This document shows positions 10,820 through 49,675 of a stretch of DNA of 59,964 nucleotides, piece after piece. Origin of the DNA: Aristaeellaceae bacterium (GTDB taxonomy: Bacteria; Bacillota; Clostridia; Christensenellales; Aristaeellaceae); NCBI GenBank assembly GCA_051878085.1, contig JBJEJN010000068.1, positions 1-59,964 of the forward strand, written 5' to 3'. The notes below the pieces were generated by a model. The model had not been told where the DNA came from and made no database searches. It saw only the letters and a list, made by a program, of their open reading frames with translations. Every line of letters starts with the position of its first letter. Positions within the stretch are counted from its first letter, which is position 1. The translations under genes were made by a program, and so were the position numbers.

Positions 10820-10846
10820 TTTCTTCTCTTCTCCTTTTTATGCGGC

Positions 10847-12724: not shown

Positions 12725-13442
<718 letters not shown>

Positions 13443-13456
<14 letters not shown>

Positions 13457-27800: not shown

Positions 27801-28106
27801 CAGCTCCCCGGCGCTGCGGATCGCCTGGCGCACCAGCATCACGCGGCCGCGCTCGTCCACCCGCACGCCGTCGGGATGGCCCGCCGCCTCGAACACCAGC
27901 GCGCACAGCCTCGCGGGGCTGAGCACGCGCAGCTGAAAGGAGCCCGGCAGCTTCAGTTCGCGCAGCAGCAGGCGTTCGGTCAGCAGCGTGAGCTGCTTCG
28001 GCACCACGATGTACTGGGTCGCGTCCTCCGCATCCAGCGCCGCGCCGATTTTCTGCACCAGCGCGCCGGAGAGCAGGCGGTTCTCCCCCGTGTGCACCTT
28101 CAGCAT
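24804..28106 (-). CDS. addB: helicase-nuclease complex subunit B (AddB/RexB-type PD-(D/E)XK nuclease with an Fe-S cluster)
   Basis: About 1100 aa. The C-terminus carries the RecB-type nuclease motif GRIDRVD...VIDFKLG and four cysteines (GCPF...PCTYCNCRPAC) in the AddB Fe-S staple arrangement. The N-terminus (MLKVHTGENRLLSG) lacks a GxGK[ST] Walker A. The ATG at 28106 follows GGGAGG. Confidence 0.85.
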   Translation of the reverse strand: MLKVHTGENRLLSGALVQKIGAALDAEDATQYIVVPKQLTLLTERLLLRELKLPGSFQLRVLSPARLCALVFEAAGHPDGVRVDERGRVMLVRQAIRSAGELTVYRNADRRRGFADRCARQLEIFVQGGVTPEMLRDCAGRSAGMTRMKLTDLAAIYEAYLSLMGGRYQDGESELIEAALRLESAAFLREGHFWFFGFDLIPPTLMQLIAGVAAQTAAAELFYPMANDPSARGADCCDPLLDALARMRDVCEIQGVAMERDALPDEPHPCGEIGHLARELYADRVEPLAGEPEHIQMSCARDVREECMLAAATARKLAMQGMRYGDMQLICADLDAYRPALIEAFQIYEVPLFLDNSRPVSRMATAECLLTALQLIEKNFRREDVFTLMRTGYMDLTRDEADRLANYAIRRGVDGGRWLRPFTRGVDAEIAELEPLRKRLMEPLAKLKAELKDAKDLKGQLAALFGFLTEVRAYEKSLKLQQELIEKGMREAAGTLSQAWNRIIGALDQMAALMGEGKLSLRELRQTLTESLDAAVVKPLPQSGDAVYAQSMNRMLMQRAGALFVLGLSDGKSSGEEGLLTEAQRQAVSRQTKAYLGPDERSEALLRRFYLKAALGMATGEVWFSCALRGSDGSAQRPGMTMELVRGIFPGLHPIGSVSGDAQLYRLLATSPRSAASLAARAIAEGRDGGAAREVDLSAAAALREAGRELPEARARMERLEGMLRSNAGRESIDPAAARSLYGRLQSQSITRLERFAGCPFSYFATYGLRPDRVEPFELDRRQMGTFLHEAVYEFLRVCGTELNEMDAAQAEARMGRIADTLLESMRTGTPMEDSASARAESRSLRATACRCARVLAEQMQGSAFRTEQLERSFGREDGPARLQVGDTILEGRIDRVDGWAAGNSLRVIDFKLGGKPLNLAGAYHGLQLQLPVYLGAALKQKQARSAGVYYFALDEGVVNTQSTDPKQVEEERAKSFRMSGLLPEDPELLAAQTPNPERVFQARMTRENKLYSNVPCADDVNFARLIRHVLRKAQAQIDAIRGGEAAVSPASFDGWTPCTYCNCRPACLFDPRIDAKRQRRMKNMKWNEVFDQIALEDET

Positions 28107-28136
28107 GCCAAAGCACCTCCCTTGTGAAATGGGGCT

Positions 28137-28166
28137 GCGGCGGGATGTGGGCATCCCGCCCTACGG
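28137..28166 (+). repeat. REP-like GC hairpin repeat, copy 3 (compensated variant)
   Basis: Sequence gcGGCGGGATGtgggCATCCCGCCctacgg. A G-to-A change in the left arm is matched by a C-to-T change in the right arm. Confidence 0.85.
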
Positions 28167-30411: not shown

Positions 30412-30447
30412 TCCTTTCCCTGACTTCCCGCCAAAGGAGTTGAAAAT

Positions 30448-33400
30448 ATGGCATACGAAAATCTGTGCATGTACTGCTTTCAGGACCTGAACGGCGAGAG
30501 CATCTGCCCGCACTGCGGCAAGGACGCCCGCGCCGCGGTTCCGCAGATCCAGATGCTGCCGGGCAGCCTGGTGTACCGCGACCGCTTTCTGGTGGGACGC
30601 GCGCTGGGCCAGGATTCGGGCGGCATCGTGTACACCGCGCTGGACACCAAGCGCGGCGGCACCATCCGCATCCGCGAATACCTGCCCCGCAACTGCGCCG
30701 AGCGCCTGAACGACGGCACGGTCGTGCCCGTCGCCGGCATGGAGGACGCCTTCGACGCGGGCATGAAAAAGCTGCGCGCCAGCGTGGAGAGCGTGGAGGA
30801 CCCCAAGAAGCGCCACTTCTATTTTGAAGAAAACGGCACGGCTTACATCGCCCAGCGCAAAAACGGCGCATCCGCCGCCCACGAAAACGAGAGCGACGAC
30901 GACGACATGGACGAGGCCGATCATCGCAAGAAGATCGCGCTCTACATCTGCATCGCGGCCGCCGTGGTGCTGGTGATCGCCCTGGGCCTGGTGCTGTTCC
31001 TCAACTCCATGAGCGACCCGGACGACGTGACGCTGGACAATCCGCTCACCACCGTGGCTGCCGACACCACCTGGATGCCGCTGGCCACGCCCACCCCCAC
31101 GCCCTACGCCACCGCCACCTTTGCGGCGCTGGTGGATCCAGAGCTTTCGTGGATGGACTACACCTACGACGGCGACGTGGAGAAGGAGTACAACCAGCAG
31201 CAGCAACAGGCCGCCTCTCCCACGAAGATGCCCACCATCATCACCGAGGAGAAGCACGATACCGTAAGCGGCTCCTCCAGCACCACCGACGTCACCTCGC
31301 TGCAGAAGACGCTGGTGCAGCTGGGCTGGCTGAGCAGCGCCAACGTGACCGGCAGGTACGACTCCGCCACCAAGCAGGCCGTGAAGGACTTCCAGACCTA
31401 CGTCAACGAGCACTGCTCCCCGGCGAAGAAGCTGGCCGTGGACGGCATTGCGGGCGAAAAGACCCTGCAGTGGCTGTACAATTCCTCGGTTTCGCTGACC
31501 AAGCCCACGCCCACCCCGAAGCCGCTGGTGACCGCCGCCCCCGACAAGGGCATTATCAACGCAGGCTCCTCCAAGGCCCTGATCCGCGGCCTTCAGCAGC
31601 AGCTGATCGCGCTGGGCCTGCTGCCGGAGGGCAGCGCCGACGGCATCTTTGGCTCCAGCACCACCACCGCGGTGAAGAACTTCCAGATCCGCGTGAACCA
31701 GCTGCAGGGCTACAGCGCCCTGAACGTGGACGGTGTGGTGGACGAGCTGACCCAGTCCTACCTGGATTACTACGTCGACTGGTGGCTCGAGCAGCAGGTG
31801 GCGACGCCCACGCCCAAGCCCCTGAACACCGCGACCGCCAAGCCCACCGCCACCGCTACGGCCACCCCCAAGCCCATGAACACGCCCGATAACGGCGGCA
31901 CCATCAACTCCTCCTCCTCGAAGGCGCAGATCACCGAGATGCAGGAGCTGCTGGAGAAGGTCGGCCTGCTCAAGAGCAGCGACGTGGACGGCAAGTACGG
32001 CAGCGGCACCGCAACTGCGGTCAAGAACTTCCAGAAGTTCGTCAACAACAACCTCGGCACGGAGACCCTGGCCGTCACCGGCGAGTGCGACCTGCTGACC
32101 CAGCAGTACCTGCGCTACTGCGTGGAGAAGGGCATCAAGGTTGAGAGCGCGACTGCAGCTCCCACCGCCGAACCCACCGCAGTTCCCACTGCCGTGCCCA
32201 CCGCCGAGCCCACCGTGCCTCCGGAGGAGGATCCGGATTACAGCGAGGGCGATATCGTCGTCGACGCAGACTCCCCGAGGGAGTCCATCAGCTACGTGCA
32301 GGAGATGCTCTCCGCCGTCGGCCTGCTGAAGAGCAGCGACGTGGACGGCAAGTACGGCGCCAAGACCATCAACGCCGTCATCCTGTTCCAGCAGTGGGTC
32401 AACCAGGAGAAGGGCAGTGAGGTGCTGGAGGTCAGCGGCGTGTGCGACGCGCTGACGCTGCAGTACCTGGAGTACTGCTCCGACAAGGGCTACGACATCG
32501 GCGGCGCAAAGGCCACCGAGGTCCCCACCGCTGTGCCTACCGTCGAACCCACCGTCGAGCCGACCATTGAACCCACTGCCGTGCCCACCGAGGCTCCCGG
32601 CGTCGGCGTCGTGACCGACTTCCGCATCGCTGTGGATGGCGTACTCAGCGACGGCAGTCCGATTGAAGTGCCCGAGGGCGGCAAGGTGACCGTCCAGTGG
32701 GCTGCGGACGGCGCGGAGAGCTACTACGTCTACCTCTACGACGGCGACAACAATCTCATCAACAGCGCGGACGCGGTGCACAACACCGAGATGACCGTCA
32801 GCAGCAAGACCATGACCCCCGGCGTGACCTACTCCCTGCACGTGGGCGCGATGCCCGTGAACGGCGGCAAGGAGGACGTGCTCTGGGAGACGGTGCAGCT
32901 GATCCGCCCGGTTATGGCGACCGCTGAACCCACCGCCGAACCCACCGAAGCGCCCACCCGCGCGCCCAGTGTCTCAACGCCCGTGCTCAACATCGGCTCC
33001 TCGGTCTACCAGGAGAACGGCGTGACCTACGTCAGCGGCGAATCCATCATCTTCAGCTGGACCGCCGACGGCGACGTGGACCACTACATCGCCACCCTGC
33101 GCTACGAGGACGGCACCAGCTACTCCCTCGGCTCCACCCACGACACCAGCAAGACCGTGGAGACGGACTACCTGCGCTCGCTGAAGCCTGCCGGCATGTG
33201 GCGGCTGGAGGTCGGCGCGGTGGCGGTCGGAGCCAGCGACGAGGACGCGGTGTGGAACATGCTGACCTTCGGCGTGCCCGGTGCGGCGGCTCCAGAGACC
33301 CCGGACGAGCCCGTCGAGACGGAAGCGCCCGCCGATCCCGACAGCGAGAAGATCACCTACATCGACGCTGCCAGCGATGCGAACGACATCCAGACCATGC

Positions 33401-33615
33401 AGGTTGCGCTGTACAAGTACGGCCTGATCAACTCCGAAGTCGCAGAGCTTGGCGTGCTGGATACCGCCACGCTGGAGGCCGTTGCCGCCTTCCAGATGAA
33501 GGTGAACGAGCTCTACGGCGCGGAGCTGTACGTGATCGATCCCACGACGGACGCATTTGTGGACGAGGCGACGCTGAATCTGCTGCTGTATCAGGAGCTG
33601 GATCTGAACCCCTGA
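30448..33615 (+). CDS. large single-pass membrane protein: N-terminal zinc ribbon plus kinase-N-lobe-like module, TM helix, five peptidoglycan-binding (PG_binding_1-like) repeats, two beta-sandwich repeats, and Pro/Thr linkers
   Basis: Zinc ribbon CMYC...CPHC at aa 7-23 and a TM helix at aa 163-185. PG-binding-like repeats lie at about aa 280-345, 375-440, 493-558, 612-677 and 978-1047 (for example LLEKVGLLKSSDVDGKYGSGTATAVKNFQ). Paralogous roughly 100-aa modules lie at aa 720-822 and 843-945. Linkers are of EPT/TPTPKP type. AAAGGAG precedes the ATG. Confidence 0.85.
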   Translation: MAYENLCMYCFQDLNGESICPHCGKDARAAVPQIQMLPGSLVYRDRFLVGRALGQDSGGIVYTALDTKRGGTIRIREYLPRNCAERLNDGTVVPVAGMEDAFDAGMKKLRASVESVEDPKKRHFYFEENGTAYIAQRKNGASAAHENESDDDDMDEADHRKKIALYICIAAAVVLVIALGLVLFLNSMSDPDDVTLDNPLTTVAADTTWMPLATPTPTPYATATFAALVDPELSWMDYTYDGDVEKEYNQQQQQAASPTKMPTIITEEKHDTVSGSSSTTDVTSLQKTLVQLGWLSSANVTGRYDSATKQAVKDFQTYVNEHCSPAKKLAVDGIAGEKTLQWLYNSSVSLTKPTPTPKPLVTAAPDKGIINAGSSKALIRGLQQQLIALGLLPEGSADGIFGSSTTTAVKNFQIRVNQLQGYSALNVDGVVDELTQSYLDYYVDWWLEQQVATPTPKPLNTATAKPTATATATPKPMNTPDNGGTINSSSSKAQITEMQELLEKVGLLKSSDVDGKYGSGTATAVKNFQKFVNNNLGTETLAVTGECDLLTQQYLRYCVEKGIKVESATAAPTAEPTAVPTAVPTAEPTVPPEEDPDYSEGDIVVDADSPRESISYVQEMLSAVGLLKSSDVDGKYGAKTINAVILFQQWVNQEKGSEVLEVSGVCDALTLQYLEYCSDKGYDIGGAKATEVPTAVPTVEPTVEPTIEPTAVPTEAPGVGVVTDFRIAVDGVLSDGSPIEVPEGGKVTVQWAADGAESYYVYLYDGDNNLINSADAVHNTEMTVSSKTMTPGVTYSLHVGAMPVNGGKEDVLWETVQLIRPVMATAEPTAEPTEAPTRAPSVSTPVLNIGSSVYQENGVTYVSGESIIFSWTADGDVDHYIATLRYEDGTSYSLGSTHDTSKTVETDYLRSLKPAGMWRLEVGAVAVGASDEDAVWNMLTFGVPGAAAPETPDEPVETEAPADPDSEKITYIDAASDANDIQTMQVALYKYGLINSEVAELGVLDTATLEAVAAFQMKVNELYGAELYVIDPTTDAFVDEATLNLLLYQELDLNP

Positions 33616-38659: not shown

Positions 38660-39202
38660 TTACTTTAGCGCCTTGCCGAAGTCGCAGGCCCGTTCCAGCG
38701 CGTCGATGCTGGCTGCGGCCTCGCCGGGGGCGTTCAGTCCGCCGCAGAACAGTGCGCCGCCGAATTCCGCTCTCTCGAAGCAGTCGATCCAGCCCTGCAG
38801 GCCGCTGACGGCGCGATCGTCGGTGCCCGGCGCGTCCTCTGCCGCCACGGAGAGCAGGTACACCCTGCGGAAGCGGTAGTCCGTGCCGTAGAGCGGGTTC
38901 ATGCGATCCAGCAGGGTCTTCATCTGACCGCTCATCTCGTAGTAATAGATCGGCGTGGCGAACACCAGGATGTCCGCCTGCTTCAGCTTTTCCGCGATTT
39001 CGGCAGCGTCGTCCCTCTGCACGCAGCGCTGGGTTTTGATGCAGCTCAGGCAGCCGATGCAGTATCTGATCTCCTTGCCCTTCAGGCTGATGTGCTCCAC
39101 CGAATGCCCTGCATCCTGTGCACCGGCGATGAGCCGCTCCGTCAGGATATCCGAATTGCTTTTCACGCGCAGGCTGGTGGAGATGACAAGTACGTTACTC
39201 AT
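38660..39202 (-). CDS. iron-sulfur flavoprotein (Isf-like; NADPH-dependent FMN reductase fold)
   Basis: Flavodoxin-like N-terminus VLVISTSLR and a compact cysteine motif CIGCLSCIKTQRC (Cx2Cx2Cx5C), which is characteristic of Isf proteins. Confidence 0.75.
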   Translation of the reverse strand: MSNVLVISTSLRVKSNSDILTERLIAGAQDAGHSVEHISLKGKEIRYCIGCLSCIKTQRCVQRDDAAEIAEKLKQADILVFATPIYYYEMSGQMKTLLDRMNPLYGTDYRFRRVYLLSVAAEDAPGTDDRAVSGLQGWIDCFERAEFGGALFCGGLNAPGEAAASIDALERACDFGKALK

Positions 39203-39226
39203 GGTTTTCCCTCGCTTCCGTGTGTT

Positions 39227-40363
39227 TTACTGTCCCATCCGCCGGGCGAAGTCCGCCAGCGCGTCGGGGATGTGAATCTGCTGCGGACAGACCTGCTCAC
39301 AGCTGTGGCAGCCGATGCAGGCGGAGGGCTGCTGCTCCGCCGGGAGTGCCGACAGGCCCATCGAGGAGATGAACGCGCCGGAGCCCGCCGCCATGGCCTC
39401 GTTGTAGAGGTGCAGCAGGTCGGGGATGGGCAGCTGCTGCGGGCAGTGGCTGACGCAGTAGTGGCAGGCCGTGCAGGGCACCGTGGTGCGGCGGATCATG
39501 TCGTCCGCCACCGAGAGGATCAGCTCCATCTCCTGCGCGCTCAGGGGCTTGCGCTCCGCGAAGGTGGCGAGGTTCTCCTGAAGTTGCTGGAGGTTGCTCA
39601 TGCCGGACAGCGTGACCGTTACCCCCGGCAGGCTCTGCAAAAAGCGGAACGCCCAGGCCGGAGCGCCTTTCTCCGGACGTGCGGCGCGCAGCCGCGCCTC
39701 GTCGGCGGGCTCCAGGCGCGCCAGCTGACCGCCGCGCACCGGCTCCATGACCCACACCGGGATCCCCCACTCCCGCAGCAGCTCCAGCTTGCCCTGCGCA
39801 TTCTGGAACCTCCAGTCGAAGTAGTTCAGCTCGATCTGGCAGAACTCCATGTCCCTGCCGTAGGCCTCCAGGAAGCGGCGCATGGTGGGGATGTCGCCGT
39901 GGGCGGAGAAGCCCAGGTGGCGGATGCGCCCGCTGCGCTTCTGCGCCATCAGGTAGTCGTAGGTGCCGTACTTCGGGTCGAGGTACGCGTCGATGTTCAT
40001 CTCGCAGACGTTGTGGAAGAGGTAGAAGTCGAAGTATTCCACCCGGCAGCGCGCAAGCTGTTCCTCAAGGATCTCCTCGACCTTGCCCATGTTGCCCAGA
40101 TCGTAGCCGGGGAACTTGGACGCGAGATAGAAGCGCTCACGGGGGTACTTTTGCAGCGCCTTGCCCACGACGCGCTCGGAATTGCCGCTGTGATAGCCCC
40201 AGGCGGTGTCGTAGTAATTCACGCCCCGGGCCATGCAGAGATCCAGCATCTCCTCCGCCGCAGCCTCGTCGATCACAGCGTCGTTTCCGTCCACCACGGG
40301 CAGGCGCATGCAGCCCATGCCCAGCGCGGACAGCTTCAAATCCTGAAAGTCATTGTAAATCAC
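39227..40363 (-). CDS. aldo/keto reductase with a C-terminal 2x[4Fe-4S] ferredoxin domain
   Basis: AKR N-terminus LSALGMGCMRLP...YYDTAWGY. C-terminal cluster motifs are CTACHYCVSHCP and CIGCHSCEQVCP. The GTG at 40361-40363 has AAAGGAGGA 7 nt upstream and is preferred over the GTG at 40390 in the ORF track. Confidence 0.8.
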   Translation of the reverse strand: MIYNDFQDLKLSALGMGCMRLPVVDGNDAVIDEAAAEEMLDLCMARGVNYYDTAWGYHSGNSERVVGKALQKYPRERFYLASKFPGYDLGNMGKVEEILEEQLARCRVEYFDFYLFHNVCEMNIDAYLDPKYGTYDYLMAQKRSGRIRHLGFSAHGDIPTMRRFLEAYGRDMEFCQIELNYFDWRFQNAQGKLELLREWGIPVWVMEPVRGGQLARLEPADEARLRAARPEKGAPAWAFRFLQSLPGVTVTLSGMSNLQQLQENLATFAERKPLSAQEMELILSVADDMIRRTTVPCTACHYCVSHCPQQLPIPDLLHLYNEAMAAGSGAFISSMGLSALPAEQQPSACIGCHSCEQVCPQQIHIPDALADFARRMGQ

Positions 40364-40420
40364 GGTTTCGTCCTCCTTTGTGCAGGGCACATGCCCATTC
40401 CTGCGGCCCGCAGCCGGGCG

Positions 40421-40819
40421 TCAGCCCTCCAAATCATCCGCATCCACGTCCCAGCGCAGCACGCCGGTGCGCACCGCCGCGTCGTAGCGGCTGATCTTGA
40501 AGGAGAGCCGGTCGATCTCCGCATCCAGCTGGCGGCGCTGCTCCAGCAGGCCCTCGCGCACCCCCGCAAGCAGGTCGCGCCGCGCGGCCAGCGTTCCATC
40601 TCCGGCCTGATACAGCTGCACATACTCCGCGATGCGCTCCACCGGAACGCCCGCGCTGCGCATGCAGACGGCGTTCTCCACCCAGCCGAGATCCTCCGCA
40701 TCATAGTCCCGAACGCCGCTGGCCGAGCGGTGCACCCGGGGAAGCACGCCGATCTTCTCGTAGTAGCGCAGCGTGTCCGGCGTAAGCCCATAGCGCGCGC
40801 ACACCTGTCGAATGGTCAT
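40421..40819 (-). CDS. MerR-family transcriptional regulator
   Basis: N-terminus MTIRQVCARYGLTPDTLRYYEKIGVLP carries the HTH, followed by a coiled-coil dimerisation helix. The ATG at 40819 follows GAGGAGG. A MerR-type promoter lies immediately upstream. Confidence 0.85.
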   Translation of the reverse strand: MTIRQVCARYGLTPDTLRYYEKIGVLPRVHRSASGVRDYDAEDLGWVENAVCMRSAGVPVERIAEYVQLYQAGDGTLAARRDLLAGVREGLLEQRRQLDAEIDRLSFKISRYDAAVRTGVLRWDVDADDLEG

Positions 40820-40839
40820 GTCCTCGCCTCCTCGAAACC

Positions 40840-40870
40840 AGTATACAGCATGGAGTTCACTCCATGTCAA
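40840..40870 (-). promoter_or_regulatory. MerR-type promoter (19-bp spacer containing a dyad operator)
   Basis: Minus strand reads TTGACA-tggagtgaactccatgctg-TATACT. The spacer is exactly 19 bp. The dyad catggagt-ga-actccatg spans the spacer and the edge of the -35 element. It sits about 20 nt upstream of the merR-family ATG. Confidence 0.75.
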
Positions 40871-41731: not shown

Positions 41732-41792
41732 AAAAAAAGACCAACCGCCGTCCGGAGGTTCGACGACTTTCCTCCGGGATTGCGGCGGTTGG
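41732..41792 (-). terminator. strong intrinsic terminator ending the corrinoid-methyltransferase / ABC operon
   Basis: On the minus strand, a long bipartite stem (ccaaccgccg...cggcggttgg plus ccggagg...cctccgg) is followed by tcttttttt. Confidence 0.8.
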
Positions 41793-41812
41793 CGGAATCA
41801 TTCAAACTGGAA

Positions 41813-42445
41813 TCAGCCCACGAGCTCCTTGGCCTTGATGGCGGCGGAGGCGGCGTCGGGGGTGTAGGCGTCCGCGCCGATCTCGTCGGCGAAGGCCTGG
41901 GTGATGGGAGCGCCGCCGACCATGACCTTGATGTCCTTGCGGAAATCCTGCTGGTTCAGGAGGGCAACTGCGTCGCGCAGCGCGGGCATGGTGGTGGTGA
42001 GCAGCGCGCTCAGGCCCACGATCTTCACGCCGGGGTTCTCCTGCACGGCCTGCACAAACTTCTCGTGGGGAACGTCCACGCCCAGGTCGATGACCTCGAA
42101 GCCGGCGGATTCGATCATCATGGCCACCAGGTTCTTGCCGATGTCGTGCAGGTCGCCCGCGACGGTGCCGATGATCATCTTGCCCATGGCGCCGACCTCG
42201 CCCGCTGCCAGATGGGGCTTGAGCACCTCGACGCCGCGCTTCATGGCCTTGGCAGCCACCAGCATCTCCGGCACGAAGATTTCGTTGTTCTTGAACTTAT
42301 CGCCAACCACGCCCATGGCGTCGATCATGCCGCCCAGGATCTCGTTGGGATCGCAGCCCTCGTCCAGCGCGGCCTGAACTGCGCCCGCTGCCAGCTTTGC
42401 GCGTCCTGCGATGACGATGTTTGCAACTTCCTGAATCTTGCTCAT
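41813..42445 (-). CDS. corrinoid (B12-binding) protein of a methyltransferase system
   Basis: 210 aa with a helical cap domain followed by a Rossmann B12 domain. It carries DxHxxG (GDLHDIGKN), SxL (LSALLTTT) and GG (VMVGGAP) motifs. Confidence 0.9.
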   Translation of the reverse strand: MSKIQEVANIVIAGRAKLAAGAVQAALDEGCDPNEILGGMIDAMGVVGDKFKNNEIFVPEMLVAAKAMKRGVEVLKPHLAAGEVGAMGKMIIGTVAGDLHDIGKNLVAMMIESAGFEVIDLGVDVPHEKFVQAVQENPGVKIVGLSALLTTTMPALRDAVALLNQQDFRKDIKVMVGGAPITQAFADEIGADAYTPDAASAAIKAKELVG

Positions 42446-42498
42446 TTTATGTTCCTCCTTAGCTGAAGTCCTCTGTCAATTTTCTTCCTGCTTCGTTC

Positions 42499-43311
42499 TT
42501 ACTTGACCGGCCCGAACAGACCCTCGCGATAGGCGCTGATGTACTCCATGCAGTAGTCGTCCATGCCCAGCAGCGCCTCGGTGGCATAGATCAGACCCAT
42601 CATGTCGCGGTTGGTGGGATCGAGAATCGCGCTGTCCAGACCCGCGTTCATCGCCAGCACCGTAAAGCCCAGGTTGATCATCTTGCGCACCGGCAGGTTG
42701 AAGGAGATGTTGCTGACCGCCGCGGTGATGTGGATCGTCGGGTACTTTTCGCGCACCGTGGAGATGACCTCGGTGTTGGTCTCGATGCCGTTTTCAGAGG
42801 TGCAGAGCATCTCCACCAGCGGATCGATGTGGATGCGGTCCGGGCTGATGCCGTACTCCTTCGCCTTGGCCATGATCTTGTCGAACACGCGCAGGCGGTC
42901 GGCGGCGCACTTCGGGATGCCGGTGTCGTCGCTCAGCAGCGCGATCACCTGCCAGCCCTTGTTCTCGGGCTTGGCCATCTCCGGGAAGATCTTGTCGATC
43001 TTGTCGCCCTCGCCGGACACGGAATTGAACAGGCCGGGGCGCTTGCAGAACTTGTAGGCCTGCACCAGCACGTCCGGGCTGGGGCTGTCCACGCTGATGG
43101 GCAGGTCGGTGGCCTCCTGGATGCAGTCGATCATCCACTTGAGGGTCTCCACCTCCTCCGCTTCCGGCACGGAGGCGCAGCAGTCGATGAAGCTTGCTCC
43201 GGCCTCGGCCTGCATGCGCGCGCGGTTCCTGATGAATTCGCTGTCGCGCTTTGCGATGGCTTCCGCGACCACCGGAATGGAGCCGTTGATCTTTTCGCCG
43301 ATGATAATCAT
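42499..43311 (-). CDS. pterin-binding methyltransferase (methyl-tetrahydrofolate:corrinoid methyltransferase, MeTr/MtvA/MtrH-like)
   Basis: 270-aa TIM-barrel pterin-binding motifs: IIGEKING, DSPSPDV, FNSVSGEG and VSNISFNLP. Confidence 0.8.
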   Translation of the reverse strand: MIIIGEKINGSIPVVAEAIAKRDSEFIRNRARMQAEAGASFIDCCASVPEAEEVETLKWMIDCIQEATDLPISVDSPSPDVLVQAYKFCKRPGLFNSVSGEGDKIDKIFPEMAKPENKGWQVIALLSDDTGIPKCAADRLRVFDKIMAKAKEYGISPDRIHIDPLVEMLCTSENGIETNTEVISTVREKYPTIHITAAVSNISFNLPVRKMINLGFTVLAMNAGLDSAILDPTNRDMMGLIYATEALLGMDDYCMEYISAYREGLFGPVK

Positions 43312-43336
43312 AGTTCTTTCCTCCGTATCTGAAAAA

Positions 43337-44857
43337 TCACTGCTTCTGGCCGGACATCAGCGCCATGACGCTCTTCTCGTTCGCCTGCTCATGGCGGATC
43401 GTGCCGGTGATCTTGCCCTCGTAGAGCACCACGATGCGGTCGCACAGGCTGATGTTTTCCTGCATCTCGCTGGAGACCATCACGACGCTCACGCCGGAGG
43501 CTGCCAGCTCGTCAATGATTTCGTAGATTTCGTTCTTCGCACCCACGTCGATGCCCTGGGTGGGCTCGTCCAGGAACAGGATCTTCGGCTCGTTCATCAG
43601 CCAGCGGGCGATGATCGCCTTCTGCTGGTTGCCGCCGGAGAGGTTCACGATGCGCTGCTCCAGGGACGGGGTCTTGACGCGCAGGCGCTCACGGTAGGCC
43701 TGGGCGTGCTCCGCCTCGCTCTTGCTGTTGATGAGTCCCAGGCTCTTGAGCGTGCTGTTGAGCCAGACGATGGTCATGTTGTCCTCGACGGAGAACTTCA
43801 GGTACAGGCCCTGGGTCTTTCGGCCCTCGGGCACCAGACCAAGGCCGTGCTTGATGGCCTCGCTGGTGTTCTTGCGGGTGAGTTCCTCGCCGTTGACGAA
43901 CACCTGGCCGCTGACGCGGGGATCCGCGCCGAACACCGCCTGCAGCACCTCGCTGCGGCCCGCGCCGACCAGGCCCGCCAGGCCCAGCACCTCGCCCTCG
44001 TAGAGGGTGAAGGACACGTCCTCCACCTTGCCCTTGACGCTCAGGTTCTTGACCTCCATCAGCGGCTTGGCCTTGGCGTAGTCATTGTCGTCCATGTAGT
44101 GCGCGCGGGTGTAGCCGCCGCTGTACTCGCGGCCGACCATCATGGAGATCATGTCGGTGATGGTGGTCTCCTTCGTGACCAGCGTGCCGATGTACTTGCC
44201 GTCGCGCAGCACGGTGATGCGGTCGCTGATGCTCATGATCTCGTCCAGCTTGTGGGAGATGTAGAGCATGGTGAAGCCCTTCCTCTTGAGATCGGCCATG
44301 ATCTCGAAGAGCACCTTCGTCTCGTTGGGGGTGAGCGCGCTGGTGGGCTCGTCCAGAATCAGGAAGCGCGCGTTCTGGGAAAGCGCCTTGGCGATTTCCA
44401 CCTGCTGCTGCTGGGAGACGTTGATGTTGCGCACCAGCGTGGAGGGATCCATGTCCTTCAGACCCACCTGGTCCAGCAGCGCGCGGCTGTCGGCGTAGAG
44501 CTTCTTCTTGTCGATCAGGCCGAACCTGCCTTTGGGCTGGCGCGCCTGGAAGATGTTCTCCGCCACGGACAGCGTGTGCGACAGGGACAGCTCCTGGTGG
44601 ATCATGGCGATACCCAGCGCGCTGGCCTCGATGGGCGCGTTGGGGGAAACCTCCTTGCCGTCGAAGATGATCTTGCCGGAGGTGGGCTTGTACACGCCGG
44701 AGAGTATGTTCATCAGCGTGGACTTGCCAGCGCCGTTTTCGCCCACGATCGCGTGGATCTCGCCCTCGCGCACGTCAAAGTTCACATCATCGAGCGCCTT
44801 TACGCCGGGGAATTCCTTGCAAACATGGGAAATACTGCAAATTATCTTTTCGCTCAT
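43337..44857 (-). CDS. monosaccharide-type (CUT2) ABC transporter ATP-binding protein with tandem ABC domains
   Basis: First domain has Walker A GENGAGKST. The second domain has a degenerate Walker A (GLVGAGRSE), signature LSGGNQQK and FLDEPTQG, which is the RbsA/MglA/XylG architecture. Confidence 0.9.
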   Translation of the reverse strand: MSEKIICSISHVCKEFPGVKALDDVNFDVREGEIHAIVGENGAGKSTLMNILSGVYKPTSGKIIFDGKEVSPNAPIEASALGIAMIHQELSLSHTLSVAENIFQARQPKGRFGLIDKKKLYADSRALLDQVGLKDMDPSTLVRNINVSQQQQVEIAKALSQNARFLILDEPTSALTPNETKVLFEIMADLKRKGFTMLYISHKLDEIMSISDRITVLRDGKYIGTLVTKETTITDMISMMVGREYSGGYTRAHYMDDNDYAKAKPLMEVKNLSVKGKVEDVSFTLYEGEVLGLAGLVGAGRSEVLQAVFGADPRVSGQVFVNGEELTRKNTSEAIKHGLGLVPEGRKTQGLYLKFSVEDNMTIVWLNSTLKSLGLINSKSEAEHAQAYRERLRVKTPSLEQRIVNLSGGNQQKAIIARWLMNEPKILFLDEPTQGIDVGAKNEIYEIIDELAASGVSVVMVSSEMQENISLCDRIVVLYEGKITGTIRHEQANEKSVMALMSGQKQ

Positions 44858-44878
44858 CGCTCTTTCCTCCCTATTGTT

Positions 44879-44933
44879 TTGCGCCTCTACCGACGCACGC
44901 GAAGCGCGTCCGCGTGCATTGGTGGAGGCGCAA
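44879..44933 (-). other. intercistronic stem-loop after the CUT2 binding-protein gene
   Basis: Outer stem ttgcgcctc...gaggcgcaa encloses an inner stem gcacgc...gcgtgc. Confidence 0.55.
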
Positions 44934-44960
44934 GGCCTCCATTGGACGTATCGTCCGGTC

Positions 44961-45941
44961 TTAGCGAGGATAGTACTCGGCGACGTTGTCGGGAGTGACG
45001 ACGTCCATCTTGGTCCACTCGTTGCCGGTGACAGCCTCTTCGCCGGTGATCACAGCGTTGTAGGCGAAGATGACCGGGTCAGCGCCCTGGCCGAAGGGAT
45101 CCTGGCCGATGGTCGCGCCGACGATGCCGTCGTACAGAGCGTCCACGATCTCATCCATGAAGTCGAAGCAGACGTACTGGACCTGGCCCGCCATGCCCAT
45201 GTCCTTGATGGCCTCGATGACGCCCAGCTGGCCGCCGGCGGTCTGATAGATGCCCTTCAGGTCGGGGTTGGCAGTCAGGAAGTCCTTGACCTGGGTGTAG
45301 GCCTCGTCGCCGGAGTCGTGGCACTCGGTCTCGCCGACGATCTCGATGCCCTCGTACTTCTCCAGGGAAGCCAGGCCGCCGGTGCGGCGCAGCTCATGCG
45401 CGGGAACGGAGAACAGGCCGGTGATGACGGCAACCTTGCCCTCGCCGCCCATCAGCTGAGCCAGGGTTTCGCCGGCCAGCTCGCCAGCGCCGTACAGATC
45501 CTGGCCATGGAAGGCGATGCGGCTGCACTCTTCGCTGGTGTCGGAGTTGAAGGTGTAAACCTTGATGCCGGCCTCAGTGGCGCGATCCACTGCGGGGATG
45601 ATGGCGTCGGAAACGCCGACGGTGCAGATTGCGTCATACTCCATGATGATGCAGTTGTCGATGGCGTCCGCGAACTGCTGGGCGTCGAAGTCCTCGATGG
45701 TCTGGATGTCGACGGTGCAGTTGTACTTCTTCATGGTCTCCTGGATGGCCTTCGCGCCGGACTCAACGTCGACCCAGAAGGGGTTGTTGTTGACCATCAG
45801 AACAGCGATGCGGACTTCCTTGCCCTCGGTGTTCTCAGCGATTTCATAGTTGAAACCTTCGTCGACATAGGTCACTTCTGCAACGGCGATGCAGCCGAGC
45901 ATCAGAACCAGGGCTACCAACAGGGACAGGATCTTCTTCAT
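44961..45941 (-). CDS. monosaccharide-type (CUT2) ABC substrate-binding lipoprotein (RbsB-like, type I PBP)
   Basis: Lipobox LMLGC, then IAVLMVNNNPFW, typical of ribose/inositol-type binding proteins. The ATG at 45941 follows AAAGGAGGAAAA. Confidence 0.85.
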   Translation of the reverse strand: MKKILSLLVALVLMLGCIAVAEVTYVDEGFNYEIAENTEGKEVRIAVLMVNNNPFWVDVESGAKAIQETMKKYNCTVDIQTIEDFDAQQFADAIDNCIIMEYDAICTVGVSDAIIPAVDRATEAGIKVYTFNSDTSEECSRIAFHGQDLYGAGELAGETLAQLMGGEGKVAVITGLFSVPAHELRRTGGLASLEKYEGIEIVGETECHDSGDEAYTQVKDFLTANPDLKGIYQTAGGQLGVIEAIKDMGMAGQVQYVCFDFMDEIVDALYDGIVGATIGQDPFGQGADPVIFAYNAVITGEEAVTGNEWTKMDVVTPDNVAEYYPR

Positions 45942-45990
45942 GGTTTTTTCCTCCTTTTTATGTGCAGGGGGCGCTTTCTCCCCCGGCAAA

Positions 45991-46959
45991 TCAGGCTTTG
46001 CGGGTGCCGGTGCGCACCTTGTCGATGGTGACGGCGGCGATGATGACGATACCGATGACGATGGACTGCCAGTAGGCGGAGATGCGCAGCAGCACGAAGG
46101 CGTTCTTCAGGATGCCGATGATTGCGGCGCCCAGCAGGGAGCCCCAGATCGTGCCTTCGCCGCCGGACATTGCCACGCCGCCGATGACGACCGCCGCGAT
46201 GGTGTCGGTCTCATAGCCGGTACCCAGCGTGGCGTCCGCGCTGGACAGGTTGCCCGCGACGATCACGCCGCACAGCGCGCACAGCGTGCTGGTGATGACG
46301 TAGGTCAGGGTCTTGAGCGCCTTGACGTTGATGCCCGACAGCTGGGCGGTGCGCTCGTTGTTGCCGATCGCGTAGATGTTGCGGCCGGTGAGGGTCTTCT
46401 GGGCGAAGATGCTGCCCAGAAGAATGGTCAGGAGCATCACAATGACCGCGACCGGGATCGGGCCGATGTAGCCCTTGCCCAGCCAGGACAGGCTGGACTG
46501 GAACTTGATCGGGCGACCCTGGGTCAGCAGCAGCGTGCAGCCGCTGAGGATCTTACCCATGGCCATGGTGACGATGAAGGGAACCAGATTGACCCGGGTG
46601 ACCAGCAGGCCGTTCACCAGGCCGATCACGGCGCCGATGAGCAGGGTCAGCGGCAGCACCACGAACCACGGCAGCGCCATCGCAGAGGAGAAGTAGGCGC
46701 ACAGGCTGGCGGTGAGACCGACCACATAGCCGACGGAGAGGTCGATGCCGCCGGCGATGATGACCAGCGCCATGCCCACGGACACGATGCCGTAGCGCGA
46801 AATCTGGTTGAGAATGTTGAAGATGTTGCTTACCTTCAGGAAGTACTCGCTCAGGAAGCTCATCAGCACGCAGAGCACAACCAGACCAACAAAGATGCTG
46901 AACTCGCTTCTGCTGGTGATCCGCTTCCAAAGCGACCTGTTCGCGGTGTTTTCTTTCAT
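45991..46959 (-). CDS. monosaccharide-type (CUT2) ABC permease (RbsC-like)
   Basis: 322-aa polytopic protein of the BPD_transp_2 type (GGIDLSVGY motif). Confidence 0.85.
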   Translation of the reverse strand: MKENTANRSLWKRITSRSEFSIFVGLVVLCVLMSFLSEYFLKVSNIFNILNQISRYGIVSVGMALVIIAGGIDLSVGYVVGLTASLCAYFSSAMALPWFVVLPLTLLIGAVIGLVNGLLVTRVNLVPFIVTMAMGKILSGCTLLLTQGRPIKFQSSLSWLGKGYIGPIPVAVIVMLLTILLGSIFAQKTLTGRNIYAIGNNERTAQLSGINVKALKTLTYVITSTLCALCGVIVAGNLSSADATLGTGYETDTIAAVVIGGVAMSGGEGTIWGSLLGAAIIGILKNAFVLLRISAYWQSIVIGIVIIAAVTIDKVRTGTRKA

Positions 46960-46971
46960 GCTTACAGCCCC

Positions 46972-48252
46972 TTATTTCGCAATCTTTGCGTTGTAGTCCT
47001 TCACGGCCTGGAACATGGCCAGCATGTTCTCCATGGGCGTCTGGCCCTGGATGTTGTGCACGGTGTTGAACACGAAGCCGCCGCCGGGCGCGAAGATCTC
47101 CAGGCGCTCCATGGCCTCGTTGTAGCACTCCTCGGGCGTGCCGAAGGGCAGCGTCTGCTGGGTGTTGATTCCGCCGCCCCAGAATACAAACTTGTCGCCC
47201 CACTGCTCCTTGAGCATGTGCGGATCCATGCCGGCAGCGGTGGTCTGCACGGGGTTGAGGATGTCGATGCCGCACTCGTGGAAGTCCTTCAGGAAGGTGA
47301 CGATGGAGCCGCAGGAATGGAAGAAGGTCTTCCACTCGGTGTGCTCGTGGATCCAGCCGTTGATCCTGGCGTAGACCGGCTTGTAGAACTCCTGGAAGGC
47401 CTCGAGCGCCATGTACGGGCCGCGCTGCAGGCCGAAGTCGGTGCCGGAGATGTACACGGCCTGAATCTTGTTGCCCACGGCCTGGTACAGCAGCTCGGCG
47501 TTCTTCAGGGCAACCTCCAGCTGCATCTCGTAGATCTCGTGGATGTAGTCGGGATCCAGGTGGTGCACCATCATGAACTCCTGCAGGTCGCGGATGCCCT
47601 TGGGATCGCAGACGTGCGGGCCGGGAACCAGCGCGAAGTCGCCGATGCCGCACAGCGCGCCGTTGTAGATCATGCCGTAGCCGGTGTTCTCGTAGATGTT
47701 GTTGACGTCGTCCTGGATGAAGCGCAGCTCCTCGTCGGTGAAGACCTTGAAGTCGTCCTTGTAGTCCTCGCGGGCGTTCAGGTCGTCATCCTCGGCGGTG
47801 GCGTTGCTGCGGGTGATGTTGTCAAAGAAGAAGCCGTCCTTGGGCATCTTGCCCGCCGGGGGATAGTTGGTGTTGCCCTGGGCGTAGATGTAGGTGTTGC
47901 CGCGCTCGTCGGTGGTGGTGCGGAACTCCTCGGAGACCAGCATCTTAAGTCCGTTGTGCAGCGTCCATTCCTTCCAGTCGCGGTTCTTGTAGCCGAAGAT
48001 GGTGTAGCCGTTGTTGACGCCGATCACGCCCGCGCCAACCGCCTGGCGCAGATCCTCGTCCACGCGGCCCAGCAGCTGCAGCGGCTCGTCCATGACCGGG
48101 GTGATGTCCTCCAGGCCCAGGCCCTTGCGCAGCTTCACCAGGGCGTTGATGTTGATGCCGGTGATGGAAGTGGAACCCAGATCGACCACGACCTGGCCGG
48201 GATCACGGTGGTTGAGCGTATCGATCAGGCGCTCCCGATAAGTCTTACCCAT
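46972..48252 (-). CDS. uroporphyrinogen-decarboxylase (URO-D) family methyltransferase (MtaA/CmuA/MtvB-like)
   Basis: 426 aa. The C-terminal half carries FFHSCGSI (H-x-C Zn motif of the family), ILNPVQ, FWGGGI and FVFNTVHNIQ. It is the first structural gene of the operon. AGGAGGAGGAG precedes the ATG. Confidence 0.75.
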   Translation of the reverse strand: MGKTYRERLIDTLNHRDPGQVVVDLGSTSITGININALVKLRKGLGLEDITPVMDEPLQLLGRVDEDLRQAVGAGVIGVNNGYTIFGYKNRDWKEWTLHNGLKMLVSEEFRTTTDERGNTYIYAQGNTNYPPAGKMPKDGFFFDNITRSNATAEDDDLNAREDYKDDFKVFTDEELRFIQDDVNNIYENTGYGMIYNGALCGIGDFALVPGPHVCDPKGIRDLQEFMMVHHLDPDYIHEIYEMQLEVALKNAELLYQAVGNKIQAVYISGTDFGLQRGPYMALEAFQEFYKPVYARINGWIHEHTEWKTFFHSCGSIVTFLKDFHECGIDILNPVQTTAAGMDPHMLKEQWGDKFVFWGGGINTQQTLPFGTPEECYNEAMERLEIFAPGGGFVFNTVHNIQGQTPMENMLAMFQAVKDYNAKIAK

Positions 48253-48276
48253 TTAAATCTCCTCCTCCTGACGGAT

Positions 48277-48294
48277 TCCGTGCTCGTGCACGAA
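48277..48294. promoter_or_regulatory. candidate LacI-family operator, site 1 (between promoter region and the URO-D methyltransferase start)
   Basis: Sequence tccgtgctcgtgcacgaa. It is an 18-bp near-palindrome with a central CG. The 14-nt core cgtgcacgagcacg is shared with sites 2 and 3 (inverted here). It lies 25-42 nt upstream of the ATG at 48252. Confidence 0.6.
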
Positions 48295-48330
48295 TTTGAT
48301 TTAGCATTGCGCAGCTATGTAAAGGGCAAA

Positions 48331-48359
48331 ATTAAGATTTTTGCCTCAACGCTGTTCAA
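48331..48359 (-). promoter_or_regulatory. weak candidate sigma-70-type promoter for the methyltransferase/ABC operon
   Basis: Minus strand reads TTGAAC-17 nt-CTTAAT. Operator site 1 would lie in the leader. Read-through from the lacI gene is an alternative. Confidence 0.3.
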
Positions 48360-48439
48360 AAAAGCGGAATTTGTCAGAATTTCTGCTCGTGCCTTGTGAA
48401 CCGGCACAAATTTGTGTCGTGCACTTTGCTTGCACATCT

Positions 48440-48457
48440 TCCGTGCACGAGCACGAA
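48440..48457. promoter_or_regulatory. candidate LacI-family operator, site 2
   Basis: Sequence tccgtgcacgagcacgaa, located 44 nt downstream of the lacI-family gene stop. Confidence 0.55.
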
Positions 48458-48500
48458 TCTGACCCGGAAAAAATCGCACAGTCAGCTGTTGCGATCCTTT

Positions 48501-49577
48501 CTATCCCCGGTTCATGGAGTACATGCCTGTGAACACCTCGTAGCCCTTCAGGGAGATGTTCTCCCGGGAGCGGATGTCGATGCCGGTAAACAGGCGGTTG
48601 AGCTTCGGCTTTTTGCCGAACATGTGATAATCACGGAAAATTTCAATGGGCATGTAGCCCTGGACAAAGGCCTCCTGGCCGATGGTGAAGTCCACCACGC
48701 GCTCCTTGACGTAGCGGATGGTCTCGGGCAGCGTATCGTGGCAGATCATGTGGATTTTGCCCGCCTGCCCGGACTGCGCCAGTGCGCGCGCCGCCGCCTG
48801 CTGACCGCCGCCGGCCGTGTAGATGCCGACCAGCTCCTTCTCCCGATGAATCAGATCCCTCACGATATCGTAGGCCTTTTCCTCGGATTCATAGGTCATG
48901 TACGGCCCGATCATCTCGATGTCGCTGCGGCGCTCCTCGTCGAACACCTGGCAGAAGCCCCGGACGCGCTCGATGTGCGCCAGAAAGTCCATCTGGCTGA
49001 TGAGCAGCGCCATTTTTCCGCTCTCCCGGGCGACCATCGACATCAGCTGTCCCGCCGTGCGGCCCGCCATGATGTGGTCGTTGCCCACGAAGCACATGCG
49101 CTTCGTGCCGGAGATGTCGCTGTTGAATGTGATGACGGGGATGCTCTCCGGCAGCCGGTTGATGCGCTCGCGGATGCGCTGGTCCTCGATGGGCACCAGC
49201 ATGATGCCGCAGACGTTCATGTCCTCCAGCCGGTCGATGCAGCCGAGCTGCTCCTCCACCGTCACGTGCTCCATCGTCAGCTTGACGACCTCCATGCCGT
49301 AGGTGGCGGCCATCTTGGAGGCCTCATCGATGCCGGAGTTGACGTCGATGTAGAAGGGGTTCGCCTCGCTGGGCACGATCGCGCCGATGCGGAATGCGTT
49401 CTGCATGCCGCGCAGCGCCTGCGCCATGGCGTTGGGCTTGTAGTCCAGCTCCTGCATCACGGCAAGCACGCGCGCGCGCGTTTTCGGGTCCACGCCATAG
49501 CGACCGTGAATCACGCGGTCAACCGTGCCCCGGGAAACATTTGCGACTTCTGCAATCTGCTTGAGCGTACTCGCCAT
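48501..49577 (-). CDS. LacI-family transcriptional regulator
   Basis: N-terminal HTH LKQIAEVANVSRGTVDRVIHG...YKPNAMAQALRG, plus a periplasmic-binding-protein-like sugar-sensor domain. Confidence 0.9.
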   Translation of the reverse strand: MASTLKQIAEVANVSRGTVDRVIHGRYGVDPKTRARVLAVMQELDYKPNAMAQALRGMQNAFRIGAIVPSEANPFYIDVNSGIDEASKMAATYGMEVVKLTMEHVTVEEQLGCIDRLEDMNVCGIMLVPIEDQRIRERINRLPESIPVITFNSDISGTKRMCFVGNDHIMAGRTAGQLMSMVARESGKMALLISQMDFLAHIERVRGFCQVFDEERRSDIEMIGPYMTYESEEKAYDIVRDLIHREKELVGIYTAGGGQQAAARALAQSGQAGKIHMICHDTLPETIRYVKERVVDFTIGQEAFVQGYMPIEIFRDYHMFGKKPKLNRLFTGIDIRSRENISLKGYEVFTGMYSMNRG

Positions 49578-49599
49578 TCTATCACCGTAACATTTGCGA

Positions 49600-49617
49600 T
49601 CCGTGCACGAGCACGGA
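49600..49617. promoter_or_regulatory. candidate LacI-family operator, site 3 (autoregulatory position)
   Basis: Sequence tccgtgcacgagcacgga, with 16 of 18 positions symmetric about the central CG. It lies between the predicted lacI promoter (49647-49675) and the lacI ATG (49577). Confidence 0.6.
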
Positions 49618-49646
49618 ATGAAATAAACAATTCATTTTGTACACAA

Positions 49647-49675
49647 ATATTACCACACACATAACGGTATGTCAA
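49647..49675 (-). promoter_or_regulatory. sigma-70-type promoter of the LacI-family regulator gene
   Basis: Minus strand reads TTGACA-17 nt-TAATAT. Confidence 0.65.

Follow-up and report, generated by a model that had tools for sequence, protein, structure and literature searches.

A LacI-regulated operon that joins a putative URO-D-fold methyltransferase and corrinoid methyl transfer proteins to a sugar importer points to oxygen-free demethylation of methylated carbohydrates

Introduction

Why should a corrinoid-dependent methyl transfer system share an operon with an importer for monosaccharides? The question is raised by seven genes at positions 41732–49675 of the window, by which we mean the whole 59,964-nt stretch of DNA analysed here (contig JBJEJN010000068.1, assembly GCA_051878085.1, from an Aristaeellaceae bacterium). 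They encode a LacI-family regulator, a 426-aa protein of the URO-D superfamily, the permease, substrate-binding protein (SBP) and ATPase of a CUT2-type ATP-binding cassette (ABC) importer, a pterin-binding methylcorrinoid:tetrahydrofolate methyltransferase (methyltransferase II, MT II) and a corrinoid protein. A reading of the letters without database searches (the sequence-only reading) had named a methylated sugar or cyclitol as candidate methyl donor. We followed up this proposal computationally and conclude, with a probability of roughly 0.6, that the operon serves, under LacI repression, to break down a methylated carbohydrate the size of a monosaccharide.

Methyl ethers on sugars stand in the way of the usual glycolytic and isomerase routes. 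Methylated sugars reportedly withstand breakdown in the gut and build up in sea water (PMC6292453). In the literature searched, the one sugar demethylase to appear is an O2-dependent P450: the 6-O-methyl-D-galactose demethylases of marine Bacteroidetes, encoded in polysaccharide-utilisation loci, release the methyl group as formaldehyde (PMC6292453, PMC10033563). A full-text literature search, subscription-only papers not covered, returned no report of a methylated sugar or cyclitol losing its methyl group to a corrinoid- or cobalamin-dependent enzyme, in agreement with the sequence-only reading, which had held carbohydrates to be an undescribed substrate class for corrinoid methyltransferases. 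The pairing of functions in this operon points to such an undescribed, oxygen-free removal of methyl groups from plant sugars.

Results

Seven genes combine sugar import with corrinoid methyl transfer

Open reading frame (ORF) listing together with Pfam and NCBIfam profile searches places all seven minus-strand genes where they had been claimed (Table 1), and every motif that had been quoted for them (FFHSCGS, IIGEKING, SNISFNLP, GDLHDIGKN, SALLTTT and VGGAP) is present in the translations. MT II scores 329 bits against NF005719 (cut-off 259), and its closest solved structure is the MT II of the Desulfitobacterium hafniense O-demethylase (276 bits, E = 3e-81). For the corrinoid protein, whose scores stay below the cut-offs of all substrate-specific NCBIfam models, the nearest solved structure is a cobalamin-binding protein from Moorella (E = 4e-54). 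The small corrinoid protein and the MT II that characterise O-demethylase systems are thus both represented.

The importer has the composition of a CUT2 system, with a single BPD_transp_2 permease, a fused tandem ATPase and a Peripla_BP_4 binding protein. The likely start of the latter, MKKILSLLVALVLMLGC, forms a lipoprotein signal, and the identical metagenomic contig L001 carries the same 326-aa call. All importer scores lie far below the cut-offs of the NCBIfam equivalog models for named sugars, so that no named sugar can be assigned as its ligand. The nearest solved structures of the binding protein are generic CUT2 proteins for glucose, xylose, fucose and ribose, which at no more than 97 bits do not discriminate between ligands. 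A match to the rhizopine model (50.7 bits, cut-off 420) was rejected as evidence for an O-methyl-inositol; it is no better than the matches to the allose and rhamnose models.

Table 1 Positions of the operon features in the window and of partner-family copies in other loci
Feature	Position	Strand	Evidence or remark
Sigma-70-type promoter upstream of lacI, TTGACA-17-TAATAT with TG extension	49647–49675	-	10/12 matches
Operator O1, TCCGTGC-TCGT-GCACGGA, between promoter and lacI start	49600–49617		Palindrome search
LacI-family regulator, 358 aa	48501–49577	-	PF00356 LacI helix-turn-helix and PF13407 Peripla_BP_4 effector domain
Terminator-like hairpin and U-tract directly 3' of lacI	48467–48501	-	-17.1 kcal/mol, z = -4.25
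Operator O2, same palindrome as O1, just after lacI	48440–48457		Palindrome search
Operator O3, same palindrome, ~12 nt upstream of the URO-D ribosome-binding site	48277–48294		Palindrome search
URO-D-superfamily protein, 426 aa; putative substrate-specific zinc-dependent methyltransferase I	46972–48252	-	PF01208
CUT2 ABC permease, RbsC-like	45991–46959	-	BPD_transp_2; RbsC model 245 bits
CUT2 substrate-binding lipoprotein, 326 aa from MKKIL	44961–45941	-	Peripla_BP_4
CUT2 tandem-domain ABC ATPase, 506 aa	43337–44857	-	Pfam/NCBIfam profiles
Pterin-binding methylcorrinoid:tetrahydrofolate methyltransferase (MT II)	42499–43311	-	NF005719; PDB 4o0q
Corrinoid protein, 210 aa, DxHxxG motif (GDLHDIG)	41813–42445	-	PF02607 B12-binding_2 and PF02310 B12-binding; PDB 1y80
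Intrinsic terminator, long GC-rich hairpin then U-run	41732–41796	-	Fold -34 kcal/mol
Partner family, L094	14434–17283
Partner family, L087	5151–8045
Partner family, L077	7145–9874
Partner family, L070	7457–9952
Partner family, L097	11474–16855

The URO-D-fold protein belongs to a large clade with an invariant zinc-type triad

The 426-aa protein matches PF01208 with 53 bits (cut-off 23.9) over residues 219–420 only, its C-terminal half. It misses the cut-offs of the MtaA/CmuA models by a wide margin (TIGR01463, 43.6 against 235.4 bits; NF004889, 45.4 against 244; NF040654, 40.4 against 400), and a sequence search of the PDB gave marginal matches only (MtaA, E = 0.14; UroD, E = 0.22). The fold nearest to its AlphaFold2 (AF2) model (pLDDT 91) is that of MtaA (4ay8/4ay7), followed by UroD and MetE. 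PF01208 and the AF2 fold together place the protein in the TIM-barrel superfamily that contains the URO-D-type methyltransferases I (MT I). HMMER alignment pairs H312, C314 and H399 with a His, Cys and Cys of MtaA, which we take to be the zinc ligands of that enzyme, and this triad is invariant in 91 of 91 family members from many phyla. Equally invariant in the 91 members are D24, Q59, D144, R148, D205, R221, D272, Q276, H302, N333, Q336 and K348, together with the aromatic residues W93, W307 and W358.

Profile scores against the MtaA/CmuA models assign the protein to a large uncharacterised clade predicted to be distinct from MtaA/CmuA. Classification by profile and structure, which the sequence-only reading had suggested as its first check, thus yields neither the decarboxylase type nor the MtaA/CmuA type, with the zinc-ligand positions of MtaA kept. 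A decarboxylase of the HemE type was considered and rejected on the C-terminal-half match, the marginal UroD hit, the zinc-type triad and the sugar and corrinoid gene contexts. The clade is extensive: more than 7,900 homologues share sequence words with the protein, and 1,230 representatives of 50%-identity clusters match it at E ≤ 1e-30. In the source records the members go by no more than 'uroporphyrinogen decarboxylase family protein' or 'methyltransferase'. Among named relatives, those from metagenome-assembled genomes (MAGs) of Eubacteriales/Aristaeellaceae stand closest; Lactonifactor, Robinsoniella and Faecalicatena are cultured carriers, and a Fusicatenibacter MAG carries a member as well. 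That MAG also encodes a CobW/COG0523-type metallochaperone GTPase (L005:6680-7624), co-directional and three genes upstream of the URO-D protein in the ORF calls, which may bear on zinc loading of the enzyme.

The regulator, URO-D protein and importer form a conserved cassette

Eight loci from Firmicutes and Spirochaetia share a cassette made up of LacI, URO-D protein, CUT2 permease, binding protein and ATPase. The order LacI-UROD-permease-SBP-ATPase is found in L091, L093, L090 and L096, whose URO-D proteins are 90, 65, 63 and 63% identical to that of the window; L091 continues with MT II at the contig end, and the cassette of L095, a Spirochaetia genome (60% identity), has a divergent lacI. 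Permease, binding protein and ATPase of these five loci are closer to the proteins of the window than to generic CUT2 proteins. L006 and L097 show a different order (LacI-permease-SBP-ATPase-UROD), the LacI-UROD pair stands alone in L002 (Robinsoniella) and L005 (Fusicatenibacter), and in Synergistota, Spirochaetota, Chloroflexota and Clostridia more distant members (L018, L037, L040, L065, L073 and L084) have CUT2-type permease and ATPase genes at their flanks. Since the cassette is kept in eight loci of two phyla, the ABC genes are not a lineage-specific insertion, an objection that the sequence-only reading had raised against its own proposal.

L090 carries two URO-D-bearing CUT2 cassettes side by side (L090:1765-7370 and 8903-14983). 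The first, just upstream of the LacI-led set, has the order ATPase-permease-UROD-SBP-esterase with a 420-aa URO-D protein, and the arrangement suggests duplication followed by divergence of substrate specificity.

MT II and corrinoid protein are a variable addition, attached among the cassette loci only in the window and in L091. In both, MT II begins 25 bp after the ATPase gene, and no terminator intervenes before the end of the corrinoid-protein gene. The triad of URO-D methyltransferase, corrinoid protein and pterin methyltransferase, on which the sequence-only reading had built, is complete in the window and is not a conserved unit.

Corrinoid machinery accompanies the clade in many phyla

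Neighbourhoods were counted for the 80 best genome loci (~42–65% identity) at a radius of 10 kb. A corrinoid protein is found in 15 of these, in several as immediate neighbour; the phyla concerned include Acidobacteriota, Planctomycetota, Chloroflexota, Bacteroidota, Bathyarchaeia, Atribacterota and Aminicenantes, and three of the corrinoid-linked loci also carry a pterin-type MT II. One Lachnospiraceae-lineage locus (L094, 222 index blocks) combines an MtaA-like URO-D protein, an AraC/PocR regulator, a corrinoid protein, a RACE activase, LacI, a 423-aa clade member, a CUT1 transporter and a 949-aa protein; a search of this locus for shared regulatory motifs that would tie the corrinoid and RACE genes to the LacI regulon gave nothing convincing. 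A Bacteroidetes MAG (L044:6741-14827) has the order UROD, corrinoid protein, 336-aa URO-D protein, MetH-activation-like domain and second 336-aa URO-D protein, both 336-aa proteins being MtaA-like, with a radical-SAM activase and a PFL-like glycyl-radical enzyme directly upstream of the family member.

Across the loci the ~420-aa protein is constant, and the second methyltransferase alternates between the pterin type and an MtaA-like type. This is what would be expected if the constant protein were the substrate-specific MT I.

Neighbouring genes point to plant polysaccharides

A census of 147 putative operon partners of the clade is dominated by Peripla_BP_4/BP_1, URO-D paralogues, Sugar_tr/MFS, B12-binding, BPD_transp_2, BPD_transp_1, ABC_tran, LacI, AraC and glycoside hydrolase family 2 (GH2; other GH families likewise); CUT1 transporters are also among the neighbours. 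Individual arrangements include GH2-UROD-GH38 (L014), UROD-GH2 (L033), GH53 upstream of UROD (L022), UROD followed by a GH141-like beta-helix protein (L062), an AXE1-like esterase followed by an alcohol dehydrogenase, UROD and corrinoid protein (L049), corrinoid protein-UROD-ROK (L053) and, in three phyla (L061, L064 and L069), a Sugar_tr porter after UROD. L087 is a locus of carbohydrate-active enzymes with GH30 and GH3, and the neighbours in L085 are GH28-like, enolase-superfamily and dihydrodipicolinate synthase-like proteins. The beta-helix proteins next to the URO-D gene in L087 and L062 could not clearly be joined into one family (E = 0.018).

Large unannotated neighbours of the URO-D gene proved mutually homologous in L087, L094, L077 (Pirellulales), L070 (Acidobacteriaceae) and L097, and further copies lie within 10 kb in L029, L036, L039, L058 and L069, giving a total of 10 loci. 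This uncharacterised partner family (~830–1,800 aa) stands beside the URO-D clade in at least five phyla. Its members have a GH67N-like N-domain, a TIM barrel, a malectin domain, a helical bundle and a beta-sandwich, with no Pfam catalytic domain, and their source names are 'alpha-glucuronidase family glycosyl hydrolase' or 'malectin domain-containing'. The structures closest to an AF2 model (pLDDT 86.7) are GH115 alpha-glucuronidases, including a 4-O-methyl-alpha-glucuronidase, followed by a GH138 alpha-galacturonidase (rhamnogalacturonan II degradation) and then GH67 alpha-glucuronidases. On the basis of this model we regard the partner as a putative new GH115/GH67-like uronidase family. In L097 an extracellular member with carbohydrate-binding modules CBM6 and CBM35 directly follows LacI-permease-SBP-ATPase-UROD, and the locus can be read as a single unit for release, import and demethylation. 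A neighbour-joining tree intermixes CUT2-linked and glycosidase-linked members within the Firmicutes/Spirochaete clade, which suggests one substrate class.

The regulator is predicted to sense the ligand of the importer

The first gene product combines a helix-turn-helix with a periplasmic-binding-like effector domain, and predicted palindromic operators lie near the promoter, as expected of a LacI-family repressor. The core palindrome CCGTGC-N4-GCACGG occurs three times in the window, which amounts to six strand matches compared to 0.47 expected by chance; none of 100 shuffles reached six. It is found at the equivalent three positions in the orthologous loci L091 and L093. A search of the whole window for further copies, which might mark regulon members or a downstream pathway, returned only the three local sites. 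The CCGTGC half-site with its 4-bp spacer differs from the common LacI-family consensus. The centres of O2 and O3 are 163 bp apart, a distance compatible with repression by DNA looping.

The effector domain of LacI, a paralogue of the binding protein, is 29% identical (114 bits) to that protein of its own operon, a match exceeding the best that the binding protein has to any solved structure. This similarity is consistent with recognition of one ligand by both proteins.

Unit boundaries and surroundings

The consensus promoter, palindromic operators, strong terminator and separate promoter of the following gene deoC (TTGACA-17-TATGAT) that the sequence-only reading had described are all present. 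Its claim of one transcription unit holds for the gene set, the promoter and the terminator, but the terminator-like hairpin after lacI and the 248-bp spacer between lacI and the URO-D gene put it in some doubt. Given these two features, lacI and a six-gene operon may be separate units, rather than all seven genes sharing one transcript; the spacer showed no consensus sigma-70 promoter. A scan of 28 window proteins found no RACE/RamA-type activase, and in an Rfam scan of the whole window (1–59964) no family reached its gathering score, which leaves the window without a match to any riboswitch (cobalamin riboswitches included), tRNA or further curated RNA; both absences had been noted before.

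Just downstream of deoC (38660–40870) lie minus-strand genes for a MerR regulator, a fusion of aldo/keto reductase with a 4Fe-4S ferredoxin-like domain, and an FMN reductase, a trio with no obvious connection to the operon. In L091 the cassette adjoins a homologue of a 1,063-aa window protein (30424–33615) in which PG_binding_1 domains are repeated and a PT repeat occurs. In this relative (L091:5180-9784) the cassette directly follows addB, and the addB of the window (24804–28160) is ~13 kb off with other genes between; the cassette or its surroundings are rearranged between these close relatives.

Discussion

The analysis shows gene content, motifs, operators, conserved synteny and genomic associations; from these we infer which way the methyl group moves, what zinc does and which class of substrate is used. 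The lipoprotein binding protein and the CUT2 transporter would import a methyl sugar, and this ligand or its product would free LacI from O1–O3. The URO-D enzyme would act as MT I, in which a zinc ion held by H312, C314 and H399 polarises the methyl-bearing oxygen of the sugar. Attack on the methyl group by the Co(I) corrinoid protein would yield methyl-Co(III) and the free sugar, and MT II would hand the methyl moiety on to tetrahydrofolate (THF), forming methyl-THF. The demethylated sugar would enter ordinary catabolism through genes encoded elsewhere, and a RACE enzyme encoded elsewhere in the genome would reactivate the corrinoid protein. A precedent for such chemistry is MtaB with MtaC, in which zinc and Co(I) cleave the aliphatic methyl C-O bond of methanol; MtaB is, however, unrelated in fold and family to the URO-D proteins and its substrate is free methanol.

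As substrate we propose, with low confidence, a uronate-related methyl sugar from plant glycans, namely 4-O-methyl-glucuronate or a methyl-esterified uronate. In favour of this class are the partner family with its likeness to GH115, GH67 and GH138, neighbours of xylan and pectin type, and genes for sugar acids in L085. A neutral methyl-esterified uronate would fit the neutral-sugar transporter types better, and neutral O-methyl sugars are kept in play by the GH2, GH38 and GH53 neighbours together with Sugar_tr and CUT2 transporters. Other O-methyl hexoses, pentoses, deoxyhexoses and O-methyl-inositols are possible, with no specific support for the inositols in the comparative data. The methylated donor of the sequence-only reading thus agrees with the sugar-transporter and glycosidase contexts; between its two classes the data lean to uronates and polysaccharide-derived sugars over cyclitols of the pinitol type.

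Several points weigh against this picture. Four cassette loci (L093, L090, L095 and L096) have no corrinoid protein or MT II within 10 kb, and corrinoid dependence of their URO-D members is assumed. Neither the operon nor the remainder of the 28 scanned window proteins supplies the reductive activase that O-demethylase systems co-encode, and the operon contains no downstream catabolic gene. The His-x-Cys zinc sites of the superfamily are best known for the activation of thiols (MtaA, MetE), not ethers, and as a leaving group a sugar alkoxide is inferior to a phenolate. CUT2 and Sugar_tr transporters suggest a neutral solute and the partner glycosidase suggests a uronate, so the substrate picture is not coherent. 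Moreover, the function of the family, and with it our interpretation of the operon, is drawn from comparison for all members alike.

The first competing explanation is a classical aryl methyl ether O-demethylase, whose donor would be a methoxylated aromatic, perhaps taken up or sensed as a glycoside (lignan, flavonoid or monolignol) with LacI and the ABC transporter handling the sugar moiety. Aryl methyl ethers are the substrates of every characterised bacterial system that combines a URO-D-type MT I with a corrinoid protein and a pterin MT II (PMC8630106, PMC10989822), the MT II of the window is most similar to that of the D. hafniense O-demethylase, the carrier Lactonifactor is a lignan-transforming genus, and some loci have CUT1 transporters of the oligosaccharide or glycoside type. 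We nevertheless consider an aromatic donor improbable: CUT2 and Sugar_tr porters carry polar solutes the size of monosaccharides, the neighbours are plant-polysaccharide glycosidases and the GH115-like enzyme, and no aromatic-catabolism genes or MarR/TetR-type regulators occur among the neighbours surveyed. The clade is also distant from the MtaA/CmuA-type models and has many invariant polar residues and tryptophans.

An equally improbable alternative is that the URO-D protein is a B12-independent zinc enzyme acting on a sugar (decarboxylase-, MetE- or isomerase-like), MT II and the corrinoid protein being unrelated neighbours. The superfamily does contain the B12-independent UroD and MetE, and the four cassettes lacking corrinoid genes, like the low frequency of such genes nearby (15 of 80 loci), would find a ready explanation. 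Against this stand at least eight loci in which a corrinoid protein is the immediate neighbour (Acidobacteriota, Bacteroidota and others), the RACE activase of L094, the 25-bp gap between ATPase and MT II genes in the window and L091 with no intervening terminator, and conservation of the MtaA zinc triad rather than of the catalytic residues of UroD decarboxylases.

We give a still smaller chance to an S-methyl or Se-methyl sugar, for example 5-methylthioribose, brought in by ribose-type import and bound at a thiol-binding zinc site. The His-x-Cys zinc sites of MtaA, MtsA, MtpA and MetE bind thiols or thiolates (MtpA: 10.1101/548461), the transporter is RbsABC-like, and for related MtaA-like clusters a role in the salvage of methionine or selenium has been put forward (PMC10418091). 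The glycosidases, the extracellular enzymes with carbohydrate-binding modules and the oligosaccharide transporters, however, fit O-methyl sugars derived from polysaccharides and not a salvage metabolite, and scans of the window proteins found no mtn-type salvage genes nearby. Reverse, biosynthetic flow, in which methyl-THF and the corrinoid protein would let the URO-D enzyme methylate an imported sugar or thiol, is very improbable: both half-reactions are reversible in principle and MtaA-type enzymes normally take the methyl group from methyl-Co(III), but a LacI-repressed operon with a high-affinity importer is a catabolic signature, bacterial sugar O-methylation uses S-adenosylmethionine, and the clade is associated with degradative glycosidases.

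Corrinoid demethylation of an imported carbohydrate, our preferred interpretation, has parallels in several known systems. MtvABC of Moorella thermoacetica, OdmABCD/Vdm of Acetobacterium dehalogenans, Dhaf_4610-4612 of D. hafniense and MtoABCD of Methermicoccus likewise consist of a URO-D-type MT I, a small DxHxxG corrinoid protein and a THF-methylating pterin MT II. Unlike these, the MT I of the window comes from a separate ~420-aa clade with a His-x-Cys...His triad and a beta-rich insertion, its genes lie inside a LacI-regulated CUT2 sugar-importer operon with no adjacent activase, and the context points to a carbohydrate, whereas their known substrates are aryl methyl ethers. MtaA/MtbA (4ay7/4ay8; TIGR01463) offers the closest solved fold, with alignment of the three zinc-ligand positions, yet the window protein is only 15% identical, ~80 aa larger, has His instead of Cys as predicted third ligand and shows no link to coenzyme M. 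With RbsABC, AlsABC and MglABC and their LacI repressors the operon shares the single permease, tandem ATPase, Peripla_BP_4 protein and palindromic operators; it differs in that the transporter operon opens with a methyltransferase gene, which accompanies the transporter in different phyla. The P450 demethylases, too, strip a methyl ether from a polysaccharide-derived monosaccharide for catabolism, but they belong to an unrelated family, and the system described here would work free of oxygen and keep the methyl group as methyl-THF. Two further candidates for kinship were rejected: the bathyarchaeal 'novel MT1' MtgB, of ~300 aa, has no homology to known MT1s (PMC10989822), and the MtaA-like mlp clusters exclude THF methylases by definition, with sugars and ABC transporters unmentioned (PMC10418091).

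A wider and tentative proposal, which we regard as possible and on balance unlikely, is that the ~420-aa clade as a whole comprises pan-bacterial and bathyarchaeal zinc/corrinoid carbohydrate O-demethylases. Together with the GH115/GH67-like partner and interchangeable transporters, they would unlock methyl sugars of plant glycans such as xylan, arabinogalactan and pectin (4-O-methyl-glucuronate or methyl-esterified uronates) without oxygen and pass the methyl group into the folate one-carbon (C1) pool. The clade would then supply the first case of a corrinoid methyltransferase that works on a sugar's aliphatic methyl group, and C1 metabolism in gut, peat and sediment would gain a methyl source not seen before.

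With this operon, what becomes of methylated plant sugars in the absence of oxygen can be tested directly: it is small, the family has cultured carriers, and the binding protein and LacI can serve as independent ligand reporters. If our interpretation is correct, the URO-D enzyme would add a new substrate class to the B12-dependent methyltransferases. It would also account for the ~1,200 family clusters (50% identity) spread over polysaccharide-degrading phyla. Methyl groups of hemicellulose and pectin would then feed acetogenesis, methionine synthesis or, by cross-feeding, methanogenesis.

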